In this document: one piece after another, positions 15,661 to 33,009 of the stretch
Layout of the letters: the number at the start of each line of letters is the position of its first letter
Numbering within the stretch: position 1 is the first letter of the stretch
Origin: Minisyncoccota bacterium
GTDB lineage: Bacteria > Patescibacteriota > Minisyncoccia > Phycocordibacterales > JBBDKB01
Reading direction: 5' to 3'
Assembly: GCA_040879605.1 (NCBI GenBank)
Contig: JBBDKB010000030.1
Location: 6,821-41,192 of the forward strand
DNA: 34,372 nt
The notes under the pieces: model-generated
Told to the model about the DNA's origin: nothing
The model's database searches: none
What the model saw: only the letters and a program-made list of their open reading frames with translations
Program-made: the position numbers and the translations under genes

Positions 15661-15698
15661 AAAACATTCTATTATTCTGCAGAATAATAGAATGTTTT
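15661..15698. repeat. Perfect 38-bp palindrome (ATTCTGCAGAAT core family)
   Basis: AAAACATTCTATTATTCTG|CAGAATAATAGAATGTTTT. Confidence 0.95.
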
Positions 15699-15767
15699 TA
15701 TTTTATCTTGATTCAATATATCTGCCTCACTCTTTATTCTTGCCACTGTTCTTTTTAAAACCGTTTG

Positions 15768-15795
15768 AAAACCTTACGATATATCGTAAGGTTTT
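15768..15795. repeat. Perfect 28-bp palindrome (GATATATC core family)
   Basis: AAAACCTTACGATA|TATCGTAAGGTTTT. Confidence 0.95.
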
Positions 15796-15850
15796 TAGTA
15801 CCTAGTTCGATTCTGCATCATTTTTATTCGTATTTCTGTTCGCCACCTTT

Positions 15851-15872
15851 TTGTTATGATATATCATAACAA
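15851..15872. repeat. Perfect 22-bp palindrome (GATATATC core family)
   Basis: TTGTTATGATA|TATCATAACAA. Confidence 0.93.
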
Positions 15873-15944
15873 GTCCTTTCTCCTTATCCCTTTCCCCCTG
15901 ATTCCTGATTCCTCTTACTTCCTTGCCCCGGGGCACTCGCGGGG

Positions 15945-16712
15945 TTACTTCCCTTTTACTATTTCTTGAAGTTTCTTCCCGGCCGCTTCCCTATATGTGC
16001 AATACTCGCAGTTCTCTCCGATTTCTGGGATCGCGTTTCTCTCAAGTGTTCCGCGAGCCTCTATGAGTGTTCCTTCAATCCAATCATCGCTTCCCTCATA
16101 AGGAATGATGTCCATGTCGAATTCTAATTTAGCATCGAATACATCGAGGTCAGCTTTCCCATTGACGTACACAAAATAGGCAGTCGGATGCACGTCAAAC
16201 CCATTTTGTCTAAAAAGCCACTGATATACTTCCGCCTGGCGTTTATACGCCTGTTGCCAAAAGCCATCGAGATTTGGCTTTTCAATTTTACTCGTCGCTT
16301 TATAGTCAACAATGATAAGTTTTCCTTCTTTGTCTATCCACACGTCATCAATACCTCCCCGCACAAGAAAGTTTGTTGGTTTATGGTGGTATTGAATACC
16401 TCGCCGAAGCGCATCCCGCCATGCTTCAAGCTCTTCATGCTGATACGGCACGGCATCAATTCCATGTTCTTTGCACAAAGGGTGAACACTTTGCGCTTCT
16501 CGATGCACATCAAATTCCTTTTTCAAAAGCGTGTCAACAGCGTTATTGAGTGTAAAAGCAGGGAAAGAAGGTCGAGGAATTCCGTAACGTAGGTCTAAAT
16601 AGAAACACCGCGGACAATCAACAAATAAATCTATTTTGGAGCGCGAGATTTTGAATGGTTCCGAAGAGTTAGGATCAAAAAGCCCCCGCTGTCTCTTTTT
16701 GTAGGCTGGCAT
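15945..16712 (-). CDS. PD-(D/E)XK nuclease family protein (RecB/AddB/Cas4-like fold)
   Basis: ISRSKIDLFVDCPRCFY, GGIDD, IIVDYK, QAEVY and C-terminal CEYC. Start reassigned to ATG at 16712. Confidence 0.88.
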   Translation of the reverse strand: MPAYKKRQRGLFDPNSSEPFKISRSKIDLFVDCPRCFYLDLRYGIPRPSFPAFTLNNAVDTLLKKEFDVHREAQSVHPLCKEHGIDAVPYQHEELEAWRDALRRGIQYHHKPTNFLVRGGIDDVWIDKEGKLIIVDYKATSKIEKPNLDGFWQQAYKRQAEVYQWLFRQNGFDVHPTAYFVYVNGKADLDVFDAKLEFDMDIIPYEGSDDWIEGTLIEARGTLERNAIPEIGENCEYCTYREAAGKKLQEIVKGK

Positions 16713-16718
16713 AGTGAA

Positions 16719-16727
16719 AGTATAACA
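16719..16727 (-). promoter_or_regulatory. Extended -10 promoter, leaderless
   Basis: Minus strand TGT-TATACT, then 6 nt to ATG at 16712. Confidence 0.7.
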
Positions 16728-16760
16728 CAAAAGGAGAGCCTAGCAGCTCTCCTTTTGTGT
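16725..16760. terminator. Intrinsic terminator (symmetrical, possibly bidirectional)
   Basis: ACACAAAAGGAGAGC-CTAGCA-GCTCTCCTTTTGTGT; 15-bp stem with T-tracts on both strands. Confidence 0.8.
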
Positions 16761-16777
16761 TCCTATTTTTAAGTTTT

Positions 16778-30268: not shown

Positions 30269-30289
30269 GAAAATCAGAACAACGGGAAA

Positions 30290-30333
30290 TCAAAACAACG
30301 GGGACATCTCCCGCCAGGAGATGTCCCCGTTGT
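30290..30333 (-). terminator. Probable atp operon terminator
   Basis: 17-bp perfect stem ACAACGGGGACATCTCC/GGAGATGTCCCCGTTGT with a 5-nt loop; the minus strand ends GTTGTTTTGATTT. Confidence 0.7.
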
Positions 30334-30334
30334 A

Positions 30335-30426
30335 GAAGGAGGGGTTTCGGAGTCTGCAATCCGAGCAGATCACTGCCCCAGTCTGCGAGCGCGAGGGCCT
30401 TATCCTCCTGCGCTCACCCCTCCTTC
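30335..30426. ncRNA. Putative four-way-junction structured RNA element
   Basis: An 11-bp closing stem encloses three directly abutting hairpins; shares a module with element A. Confidence 0.55.
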
Positions 30427-30432
30427 ACTTCT

Positions 30433-30669
30433 TTAGAGGAGCACTGTTACGTGCTCTTTTGCTGTTTCCAGGAGTCCTTGCTCAATTGGAAATTCTTCCG
30501 GTTGAGCATCTTTTGTTTTTAGAACACGAAGTGTCCCCTTTTTAAGGCGCGAAACTAGCGGTTGGTGTTCGGAAAGTATTGTCATTTCACCTTCACTCCC
30601 CGGGGCAATGAGCGCGTATGCTTCACCATCATAAAACCGCTTCCCTACTGTGGTGATAGTGACTCTCAT
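30433..30669 (-). CDS. atpC: ATP synthase F1 epsilon subunit (N-terminal domain only)
   Basis: [23 protein letters not shown]; directly after atpD; 78 aa. Confidence 0.93.
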
Positions 30670-32045
30670 TTTACTTCATCAATGCTTCCTTTCATGTAGA
30701 AAGCTTGCTCGTTCTTCTCGTCATGTTTCCCTTCAAGAATTTCCCTAAAGCCACGGATTGTCTCCTCAAGGGGCACGTACTGCCCGGGAGTTCCAGTGAA
30801 CCCTTCACCGACAAAAAAAGGCTGAGAAAGAAAGCGTTGTATTTTTCGAGCTCGATGCACCGTTTGTTTGTCTTCATCGGAAAGCTCTTCAATCCCGAGA
30901 ATCGCAATAATATCTTGGAGATCTTTGTACCGCTGAAGTACCTGCTTTGTTTCCTGCGCTATTTTGTAGTGCTCCTCACCTACAACATCCGGATCAAGTG
31001 CTGTTGAGCCTGACTCAAGCGGATCAATAGCAGGATAAATTCCAAGCGAGGCGAGCGCTCTTGAGAGTACTACTGTTGAGTCAAGATGTGAGAAAGTTGT
31101 TGCGGGCGCCGGATCGGTAAGGTCATCAGCCGGCACGTACACTGCCTGCACAGAAGTAATTGAGCCTTTGTTTGTAGAAGTGATGCGCTCTTGCATAGCG
31201 CCCATCTCTTCAGCAAGGGTCGGCTGGTACCCAACAGCGCTCGGGACACGTCCGAGGAGAGAAGAAACCTCCTGGCCCGCTTGAGTAAAACGAAACACAT
31301 TATCCATAAAAAAGAGAACGTCTTTTCCCATTTCATCTCGGAAGTATTCAGCCGCTGTAAGTCCTGCCAGCCCAACGCGTGCTCTAGCTCCAGGTACTTC
31401 ATTCATCTGCCCGAACGTGAGCACTGTTTTCTCAAGTACTCCTGATTCTGCCATTTCATGATAGAGGTCATTCCCTTCACGCACACGCTCACCGACTCCT
31501 GCAAACACAGAATATCCACCATGCTCAGTTGCAACGTTTCGAATAAGTTCCTGAATGAGAACGGTTTTTCCAACTCCCGCCCCTCCAAAGAGTCCGACTT
31601 TCCCTCCTTTAATAAAGGGGGTCATGAGATCAATCGCCTTGATGCCGGTCTCAAACACTTCAGCTTTTGTACTCTGCTCGGTAAAGGCAGGGGCTTTTCT
31701 GTGTATCGGAGAGCGCGGTACGCTATTTGAGAGTTCACCTTTTCCGTCAATAGTATCTCCAAGAGTATTAAAAAGCCTCCCAAGTGCTTCCTCTCCAACT
31801 GGAACGGTTACAGGCGCTCCTGTATCTTTTACACTCATTCCGCGGGCAAGACCGCTTGTATCAGAAAGCGCGATTGCGCGCACTCTTCCGAGCCCTATGT
31901 GTTGGGCGACTTCTAACACAACTTTTTTCTCTTTCTCGCCGTCTTTTGATTCAACAGAGAGCGCATTTTGAATCGCCGGTACATCACCTTCAAAGTAGAC
32001 GTCCACGACCGGTCCGATGATTTGTTTTACTGTTCCTGTTTGCAT
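30666..32045 (-). CDS. atpD: ATP synthase F1 beta subunit
   Basis: [18 protein letters not shown] and [13 protein letters not shown] motifs. Confidence 0.99.
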
Positions 32046-32050
32046 GTTTC

Positions 32051-32965
32051 TTATTTAGCTGTGGTTTGGATGCCGCTAATAATTTCGCTCACCTCCTGTG
32101 TAATTGCCGCCTGCCGCTCTTTGTTGAAAGTAAGCCGAAGCTCTTTCCTCATATCGCCCGCTTTATCTGACGCATTTTTCATTGCTACCATTCGAGCCGA
32201 ATGTTCCGAGGCCTTTGCTTCAAGGAGCGCATGGAAGAGCAGAACGGAAAGGAGCATTGGAAAAAGATCATCTAAAACCTCCTCGGCACTCGGCTCAATC
32301 GTGTAAATCGGCGCAACACTTTCTTTGTGCTCTTCTGAGTATTTCCCTTTTTCTGGAGTAATACCTTCCACCACTTCTTTGAGTGCAACAGAATCAAGGG
32401 GAATCAATTTCCGAACAACCTCCTCCTGTTCAAAAGTTGAAAGAAAATTATTGTACGCAAGAAGACACGCATCAATCTGCCCCTCCATGTAGTCGCCGAC
32501 CACCTTTAGGAGCACGGCTCGCACCTCCTCTTCATCCACTTCGTCCCCCAAAGTATAGGAGTTTGAAATAGCATATCCCCGTCTCAAGAAATACTCATAG
32601 CCTTTTTTTCCAATGGTGTAGAAAGTGAGAGTTTCTTTGGAAAGTCCTTCTCTTCTTATGTGCTCTTCCACCCTCTTAAGGAGAGCAGTATTTAGAGAAC
32701 CCGCAAGTCCCTTGTCACTTGTAATGAGAATAACCCCCGTGTGCTTCACTGGCACGCGCTTCGAAACCAAAGGATGTCGTACTACATCAACACTCCGAGA
32801 AAGACGCTCGAGGATGGAAAGGGCGCTCTCTGCATACGGACGCCCAAGAAGCGCTCTTCTCTGACTCTTTCGCATTTTCACAGCAGAAACAGCTTCCATC
32901 GCCTTTGTGACTTGACGGGTCTTTTCTACGGAACGTATTTTGCTTTTGATTTGTCTTAAGGCCAT
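32051..32965 (-). CDS. atpG: ATP synthase F1 gamma subunit
   Basis: [31 protein letters not shown] and [12 protein letters not shown]. Start reassigned to ATG at 32965. Confidence 0.98.
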
Positions 32966-32977
32966 TTTGCGAAACTT

Positions 32978-33009
32978 ACATTCCAATATTCTGCAGAATA
33001 TTGGAATGT
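32978..33009. repeat. Perfect 32-bp palindrome (ATTCTGCAGAAT core family) filling the atpA-atpG spacer
   Basis: ACATTCCAATATTCTG|CAGAATATTGGAATGT. Confidence 0.96.

Follow-up and report, generated by a model that had tools for sequence, protein, structure and literature searches.

A stretch of 34,372 nucleotides from a Minisyncoccota bacterium (GenBank assembly GCA_040879605.1, contig JBBDKB010000030.1, positions 6,821 to 41,192 of the forward strand; hereafter the window) holds four copies of a palindrome family built around the central sequence ATTCTGCAGAAT, three of them perfect and loop-less. Judging from comparisons across related genomes, we consider these palindromes likely to be operators of a small, autoregulated ArsR-like repressor that is widespread in tiny-genome groundwater bacteria. 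In relatives of the source organism the palindrome is associated with the gene of a small winged-helix protein and overlaps the promoter of that gene, and palindrome and protein covary as well as co-occur between genomes. This ArsR-like autoregulator family of Parcubacteria-type bacteria is most likely previously undescribed; a full-text literature search found nothing on the element or the protein in Patescibacteria or Parcubacteria. PMC7739468 lists a study of LexA in Patescibacteria among its references.

Association of the palindrome with a small winged-helix protein

Of 401 genomes sampled from the order, 13 had the exact 14-mer TATTCTGCAGAATA, the source genome among them, and none had its reversed control. 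All of the 15 distinct sites in relatives kept ATTC-N4-ATTCTGCAGAAT-N4-GAAT or a near variant thereof, and uninterrupted arms of at least 12 were seen in 13 of 17 listed sites, two of which came from the source genome. In four of the 12 other genomes having the 14-mer, a gene of 88-105 aa was located directly beside the palindrome, and in two of them this gene was flanked by two copies about 310 bp apart. The four partner proteins (P0001-P0004) were orthologous, with 41-74% identity, and matched Pfam HTH_5/MarR-type winged-helix families (HTH_5 E 1e-8 for P0003 and 1e-4 for P0002). Over residues 15-83, a profile of the four proteins matched HlyU (7e-10), CadC (1e-6) and CzrA (1e-4), and weak profile matches (E 1e-2 to 6e-4) were obtained to AspA, Lrs14 and Sul12a-type proteins. 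On inspection, P0001-P0004 and P0007 showed neither metal- or thiol-sensing residues (such as an alpha-3 Cys motif), with P0001 lacking Cys and P0007 having a single Cys at the far C-terminus, nor an alpha-5 His/Asp/Glu motif.

A scan of a species-level genome collection gave 377 relatives of the protein, belonging to Patescibacteria of the Parcubacteria/Paceibacterota type, and the best 80 loci were kept for counting of sites. Copies of the palindrome were found upstream of the regulator gene in 63 of these 80 loci and downstream in 70, with 57 loci having both and 4 having neither. The sites of these cassettes were mostly perfect palindromes with arms of 14-25, reaching up to 31, and their consensus was AACATTCY-AACATTCT-G joined at the centre to C-AGAATGTT-RGAATGTT. 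Within each consensus arm an 8-bp unit occurs twice in direct orientation, and successive ATTC/GAAT tetramers, four in all, are spaced 8-9 bp apart.

With regards to promoter elements, a -35-like TTGGAA was located in the gene-proximal arm, 8-13 nt from the centre, in 41 of the 63 upstream sites. A -10 box (TAnnnT) followed 16-18 nt after TTGGAA in 34 of the 63, compared with 5 of 70 downstream sites and 10 of 63 sites read in the opposite direction as controls, and in 28 of those 34 the box ended 7-13 nt before the start of the coding match. Having the -35 box inside the operator, the gene in relatives therefore shows the classical arrangement for autorepression, together with a very short leader. 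The centre of the downstream copy lay exactly 10 nt past the last sense codon in 46 of the 71 downstream sites scored, with its outer arm AAA-ACA-TTC-TAA encoding the final K-T-F and the stop. Because this arm encodes the stop codon, the downstream copies carry TAA where the upstream copies carry CAA, and since the non-coding arm mirrors the coding arm (GTTTT), the outcome is a hairpin with a T-run that could end the transcript.

From these comparisons we infer binding of the protein and its stoichiometry, as well as an effector and an effect at the window sites. The palindromes would be high-affinity sites of the ArsR/SmtB-like winged-helix protein, with their four ATTC half-sites (two direct and two inverted) at this spacing possibly being bound by two dimers. 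Protein bound at the upstream copy, holding the -35 box of its own gene, would shut off that gene, while the downstream copy, overlapping the stop codon and carrying a T-run, would probably also end the transcript. A dimeric protein binding the core had been one of the proposals of a sequence-only reading of the window, and it gained comparative support from the bracketed ArsR-like gene, the -35 box within the palindrome and the changed palindromes at paralogues.

Protein and site were also compared between genomes. Of the 61 genomes sampled from the order, 19 encoded members of the protein family, at 1-6 paralogues per genome, and a CTGCAG-centred motif was found in 5 of the 61, all five of which encode the protein. 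With the source genome left out, the motif occurred in 4 of 18 genomes having the protein and in 0 of 42 lacking it (Fisher p 0.006). Paralogues carried palindrome variants of their own, including ACATATCAACAAACT-NN- at the source-genome paralogue on contig C7, TATTCTAGTATTTTGCAAAATACTAGAATA and one containing AATTCGCGCGAATT; a perfect palindrome (arms of at least 9, within 250 bp) was found at 17 of 30 paralogue loci and not at the remaining 13. Degenerate copies had kept the half-sites and lost the hairpin, and hybrid sites with unlike arms were also found; both kinds would fit recognition of half-sites by the protein better than a requirement for a hairpin.

The source genome encodes two paralogues of the regulator, both outside the window, on contigs C7 (57% identical to P0004) and C8 (41% identical). 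The C8 gene (G000:C8:6587-6850, 91 aa) has a degenerate ATTCTGCAGAAT-type site on each side, at C8:6543 and C8:6826, and the C-terminus of its product, KFCRTLE followed by the stop, is encoded by the palindrome core. This protein is therefore most likely the cognate binder of the window sites. On either side of the C7 gene (G000:C7:32592-32965) lies another palindrome, ACATATCAACAAACT-NN-AGTTTGTTGATATGT, which occurs once more at C8:5655, in a 1-kb palindrome-rich spacer before the C8 gene.

Palindrome copies in the window and the source genome

The source genome (597,565 bp in 31 contigs, about 45% G+C, 92% complete) has relatives in the collection only at the order level. Scoring the 22 conserved positions of CATTC-N4-ATTCTGCAGAAT-N4-GAATG, with a site defined as at least 18 of 22, we found nine family sites in this genome and zero in five shuffled genomes. 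An inverted-repeat search confirmed the three loop-less palindromes and the degenerate copy that had been reported for the window. The copy at 15661-15698 (AAAACATTCTATTATTCTG joined to CAGAATAATAGAATGTTTT; 38 bp, arms of 19+19) and that at 32978-33009 (ACATTCCAATATTCTG joined to CAGAATATTGGAATGT; 32 bp, arms of 16+16) have 22 of 22 conserved positions, whereas the copy at 30183-30222 (TCCCTTATTCCAATATTCTG joined to CAGAATATTGGAATAAGGGA; 40 bp, arms of 20+20) has 20 of 22, and in all three the arms are 100% complementary. In the degenerate copy at 27563-27594 the arms are 75% complementary, with 18 of 22 positions and the ATTC/GAAT half-sites retained. It was also clear, as had been read from the sequence alone, that the 30183 and 32978 copies have a 28-mer in common (ATTCCAATATTCTGCAGAATATTGGAAT), that at two positions of each arm the 15661 copy departs from the 32978 copy (TAT instead of CAA), mirrored in the opposite arm, and that the outer 6 bp of the 30183 copy are locus-specific yet symmetric. 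Allowing at most one mismatch, we counted 4 occurrences of the 12-mer core in the window, whereas 100 shuffles averaged 0.19 and none had as many as 4. The matches are beyond chance.

The annotated genes of the window are all on the minus strand, including dnaJ, dnaK, grpE, ribosomal protein genes, rpoA, alaS, leuS, ychF, atpA, atpG, atpD and atpC. The 15661 copy is located 22 nt upstream of the ATG of an MGMT-like gene (15387..15638) and abuts the AGGAGG of that gene, which is the first one after the palindrome; UDG, HD, EamA and M3 peptidase genes come next. Its 83-aa product has only the O6-methylguanine methyltransferase DNA-binding domain, with a PCHR motif; this protein had been a candidate for the binder and was dropped after other genomes proved to have the ArsR-like gene next to the palindrome.

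The 32978 copy lies between the stop codon of atpA (33011-33013; gene 33011..34357), 1 nt away, and the start codon of atpG (ATG 32963-32965; gene 32051..32965), which follows 13 nt after the copy, and no Shine-Dalgarno sequence for atpG was found outside the palindrome. The spacer between the two genes is 45 nt in the source genome, with the palindrome taking 32-34 nt of it, compared with about 4, 10 and 35 nt in the three relatives closest by AtpG, which are related at the order level only; as those spacers are shorter, the atp copy is probably a lineage-specific gain. In two relatives the atpA-atpG spacer was 129-145 nt, one (L259, genome G023) having a long inverted repeat of its own and the other (L262, genome G009) being repeat-rich by eye, and this junction thus seems to collect such elements repeatedly.

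The 30183 copy is found past an 18-bp G+C-rich hairpin with a T-run (30295-30333) that looks like the real terminator of the atp operon, the last gene of which, atpC (30433-30669), is short, encoding about 78 aa. Some 80 nt downstream of this copy follows a small open reading frame (ORF; 29875..30101, minus strand) for a helical protein of about 75 aa without a Pfam family, which had been considered as a further regulator paralogue and was rejected, with its weak match to the regulator (E 0.08) taken as chance and its sequence read as helical and not as a winged helix. Finally, the degenerate copy lies between the stop of ychF (27675) and a promoter-like TTGAAG-16-TATAAT (27520-27493) that precedes the gene at 26909-27484. 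That match is the best promoter-like one of the region (10 of 12) and ends 8 nt before the ATG of the gene, which suggests a leaderless or near-leaderless mRNA in an arrangement as in the regulator cassettes of relatives. A generic promoter scan gave 23 promoter-like sites against 19.2 expected and was thus uninformative. At the window sites, as further targets of the repressor, the bound protein would repress, roadblock or tune transcription at the MGMT-like/UDG operon, atpG, the small ORF and the gene at 26909-27484.

Whether such palindromes could be assembly or amplification fold-back artefacts was evaluated using the one public DNA run that carries the stretch, probably from the source sample, examined in the form of k=31 contigs; no RNA run was listed as carrying it. 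These contigs failed to bridge the three perfect palindromes, ending inside each of them, with overlaps through the centre by 20-28 nt at equal depth. Breaks of that kind are expected from a de Bruijn graph, because its word is shorter than the palindrome, and neither support nor contradict the assembly. Across the 32978 copy the genes follow the canonical order atpA-atpG. The same palindromes recur in over 60 unrelated assemblies, and dozens of assemblies from other studies have them in the equivalent position next to the regulator gene. An artefact is therefore a notion to which we give next to no credence. With regards to a hairpin telomere, in which the palindrome would be the resolution site of a protelomerase at a replicon end, all family copies of the source genome are located inside contigs and between ordinary genes.

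In RNA folding, the 15661 copy reached -18.4 kcal/mol (z -6.8), the 30183 copy -30.8 and the 32978 copy -17.7 kcal/mol, while the 27563 copy gave no hairpin (z 0.35). AAAA...TTTT flanks were found at the 15661, C19:6148 and C30:6492 copies as well as at many downstream cassette copies in relatives, and a run of 4-6 T follows these three copies of the source genome and many of the downstream cassette copies, with the stems being AT-rich, but is absent from the 30183 and 32978 copies. The earlier statement that the palindrome is not a terminator, made from the position of one copy within the atp operon, consequently holds for the atp and 30183 copies, having no U-tract, but is unsafe for copies with the AAAA...TTTT flanks. 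These data also bear on the alternative that the element primarily is an RNA hairpin, serving as a two-way intrinsic terminator, an RNase III site or a stabiliser of mRNA, with the link to the protein being secondary. The folding energies of the perfect copies (-17.7 to -30.8 kcal/mol, z about -6.9), the flanks of several copies, a bias toward gene ends and convergent gene pairs, and the fact that Rho was not found in the source genome would all agree with this. However, palindromy extends through the centre, which a hairpin loop in RNA would not require, and loop-0 hairpins outnumber loop-4 hairpins genome-wide (69 versus 40 at arms of at least 10). Furthermore, upstream cassette copies either coincide with the transcription start or precede it, half-sites persist without pairing in degenerate and hybrid copies, and termination does not call for conservation of the stem across lineages. 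We thus regard an RNA hairpin as a very unlikely primary function.

Apart from the four window copies and the C8 pair, the source genome has family sites at C19:6152, at C20:17489 and, downstream of dnaJ and some 300 bp ahead of the window, at C30:6492. With the C8 pair counted once, five of eight loci fall within 34 kb (simulated P about 0.0004). Five strong sites of this genome differ in their N4 and each is symmetric save one mismatch. Enumeration of palindromes genome-wide gave 241 inverted repeats (perfect arms of at least 10, gap of at most 9), of which 69 were loop-less, compared with 3 in three shuffled genomes. By their conserved cores, among them TACGATATATCGTA, CCAGTATACTGG, GTTCGGTTAACCGAAC and CACGATCGTG, the loop-less palindromes group into several families, and one spacer often has more than one family. 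In the window, loop-less palindromes of other families were seen at 15275-15308, 15768-15795, 15851-15872 and 27650-27669, with cores CTCACGATCGTGAG, CCTTACGATATATCGTAAGG, TTATGATATATCATAA and CTCCAGTATACTGGAG. At G000:C4:44150-44183, CTATTCGCTTATTCGTACGAATAAGCGAATAG has four ATTC half-sites as in the family, but a GTAC centre, and may belong to a more distantly related paralogue of the ArsR-like protein (weak matches at C8:11208 and C13:26125).

The sequence-only reading had also suggested a RAYT/HUH-type enzyme as the agent that spreads the core. Two Y1_Tnp genes over the Pfam cut-off were indeed found, at C11:26174-26416 and C30:51026-51247, but in their loci (G000:C11:25960-26682 and G000:C30:50746-51521) each gene is flanked by a looped palindrome of its own, the two palindromes being TAGTATAGGACAC-N3-GTGTCCTATACTA and ATAATATCAAGGTT-N-AACCTTGATATTAT, and RAYT was therefore rejected as partner of the ATTCTGCAGAAT family. 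Genes and looped palindromes together look like a separate REP-like system (REP, repetitive extragenic palindrome). The TAGTATAGGACAC-N3-GTGTCCTATACTA family has about 8 copies in the genome, one of which is located in the window at 3671-3715, between grpE and rpsI.

Other features of the window were noted. Rfam and tRNA scans gave zero matches. In the leucyl-tRNA synthetase (23800-26769, 989 aa) residues 413-540 form an inserted NUDIX domain. The alanyl-tRNA synthetase (8266-11306) appears short, with 582 aa comprising the catalytic core and SAD, followed by a separate 422-aa ORF without a Pfam family. A 355-aa protein encoded at 22736-23803 combines sigma-70 region 4 with a HARE-HTH domain.

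Exactness, dispersal and symmetry of the sites

Several findings weigh against the palindromes being operators of an autorepressor. With regards to the cassettes, no upstream copy was found in 17 of the 80 loci and no downstream copy in 10, the promoter arrangement of the relatives was absent at 9 of 9 sites of the source genome, and the best NCBIfam model for the protein, ArsR/SmtB NF033788, stayed below its cut-off (36-47 bits versus 55). The sites are also far more exact than ordinary operators, with the identical consensus 30-mer being found by exact search in at least 123 metagenome stretches. From 80 of these loci, which were fetched, we obtained 90 distinct sites, of which 23 were next to a gene for a member of the protein family and the other 67 were not. 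Non-regulator sites that were classified by gene orientation included 24 tandem, 12 convergent and 4 divergent ones, and gene ends were nearer than starts (44 versus 27 within 150 bp, p 0.057). Counting sites of any class, six were inside ORFs of at least 200 aa and a further 23 at contig edges. Copies read in frame, with the peptide HSNILQNVG/RM, were found in two YchF, one TsaD, the ATPase domain of a histidine kinase and a formyltransferase, while another TsaD has the TATTCTGCAGAATA variant of the site; in YchF, the palindrome segment can be aligned to the native protein, which it lengthens by no more than about 4 residues. No coherent regulon was found among the diverse neighbours of 75 cassettes and 35 other sites, where those recurring were TspO (7), RadC or its N-terminal domain (3), REase_MTES_1575 (6), enolase (3), dnaX (3-4) and Peptidase_S51 (2).

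The symmetry of the sites is the last of these points. Among 188 distinct sites, which are related to each other so that the figures are descriptive, the arms were complementary at variable positions in 79-93% compared with 43-79% expected for independent arms, and at 18 nt from the centre in 57% versus 35%, reaching background beyond about 22 nt. Symmetric extensions were locus-specific, with arms of at least 22 in 15 of 134 cassette sites. Binding of a protein would not by itself account for this. Part of the symmetry excess is accounted for by pooling of regulators with different preferences, but the five strong sites of the source genome, with their unlike N4, are near-symmetric as well. 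Since asymmetric hybrids and unpaired degenerate copies exist, symmetry is frequent and not required. As a second layer on top of the repressor, intrastrand template switching at an existing palindrome could mirror a change or a flank in one event, and would be tolerated because SbcCD appears to be missing. Template switching is probably the source of the symmetric, locus-specific extensions. That long loop-less palindromes are prone to SbcCD cleavage had been remarked upon before, and fits with what was found in this 92% complete genome, where SbcD was not detected and the family cut-off for SbcC was reached by no protein.

Taken together, the near-perfect arm extensions, the placement independent of promoters and the clustering suggest that the sites are spread and made symmetric by a copying process, probably template switching. 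An operator that spreads could then be envisaged, whereby the site would be copied, preferentially nearby, by a replication-linked template switch or conversion, thereby constituting a new class of protein-linked, transposase-free dispersing elements. We put this forward as tentative and rather doubtful.

The exactness and clustering could alternatively reflect architectural sites of the same protein, for nucleation or as boundaries in the manner of parS/ParB, matS/MatP or the archaeal AspA/Lrs14-like proteins, with autoregulation as a side function. Sites that are near-exact, placed regardless of promoters and in some cases inside genes would suit such a role, as would the weak profile matches to AspA, Lrs14 and Sul12a-type proteins. 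Five protein-carrying genomes had 4, 7, 12, 10 and 4 family matches, tending to be near the genes of the protein, and clustering as seen in the source genome was found in two relatives (G404, where 28 kb hold 6 of 10 sites, and G402, where 5 kb hold 4 of 7). However, some genomes hold only cassette sites (two sites and one variant in G401; only two cassettes in G405), and no ParA-type or similar partner genes were found beside the cassette. We consider a primarily architectural role unlikely.

Dispersed copies could also mean that the palindromes mainly are selfish, self-copying DNA in the manner of REP, miniature inverted-repeat transposable elements or Rickettsia palindromic elements, bound or held in check by the winged-helix protein. 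The long palindrome in the atpA-atpG spacer, set against the shorter spacers of relatives, as well as in-frame copies in five real genes, near-identical copies and the lack of a coherent set of neighbours would all be in line with this, and so would the patchy distribution across the order (protein in 19 and motif in 5 of 61 genomes). Against it stand low copy numbers of 2-12 per genome, with 9 in the source genome, no target-site duplication evident by eye at the window copies, and no linked transposase, as both Y1_Tnp genes flank other palindromes. The YchF copy, aligning as it does with native sequence, may moreover have arisen in place, and conservation of the 34-bp consensus across deep lineages suggests function. 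A mainly selfish nature hence appears quite improbable to us, and operators of an autoregulated ArsR-like repressor remain our preferred explanation.

Comparison with known systems and implications

Among known systems, the ArsR/SmtB autorepressors (SmtB, CzrA, CadC and HlyU) are alike in being small winged-helix proteins with an inverted repeat over their own promoter. Their 12-2-12 operators have AT-rich half-sites of the TTC/GAA type and are bound by more than one dimer. The present family differs from them in that no metal- or thiol-sensing residues were seen by inspection and that the proteins score below the NCBIfam cut-off, in having operators of 34-40 bp with four half-sites and often perfect symmetry, and in having a second copy over the stop codon together with near-exact dispersed copies, some of which are inside genes.

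In Rickettsia, palindromic elements are found as palindromic DNA in frame inside protein-coding genes, a likeness shared by the in-frame copies described here, which however are far shorter (30-40 bp), of low copy number and tied to a regulator, with the YchF copy being partly native-looking. The parS sites of ParB and matS sites of MatP are few, near-perfect palindromes per genome, widely conserved within clades, partly in genes and clustered. While the ATTCTGCAGAAT sites resemble these in being few, near-perfect, conserved, clustered and partly inside genes, they go together with an ArsR-like protein and no partner genes, and some genomes have only the gene-flanking sites.

In REP/RAYT systems, with which PMC8266576 deals, dispersed extragenic palindromes occur together with a gene that has its cognate palindrome at either end. 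Both traits are shared by the present family, which nonetheless has a DNA-binding protein of about 90 aa without a catalytic domain, 2-12 copies per genome instead of tens to hundreds, and a loop-less, mostly perfect palindrome without a conserved 5' tetranucleotide. Quasipalindrome correction or template switching, with which the preprint 10.1101/2023.04.19.537475 deals, would mirror changes between arms in one event and extend into unique flanks; we invoke it for the origin of the symmetry only and not for the conserved core.

The repressor and its palindrome form a testable pair, with the protein found 377 times in the species-level collection and a site of 34 bp. The promoter model is clear, having the -35 box within the operator and a very short leader, and candidate targets include part of the ATP synthase operon and DNA-repair genes. 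Patescibacteria cannot be grown alone, and to our knowledge almost nothing is known about their gene regulation. The exact copies, mirrored arms, in-gene sites and clustering moreover offer a system for studying the birth and spread of binding sites in the absence of SbcCD. If the operator indeed spreads, it would land in spacers, operons and genes, thereby rewiring or insulating transcription in genomes of the Candidate Phyla Radiation that lack SbcCD and Rho.

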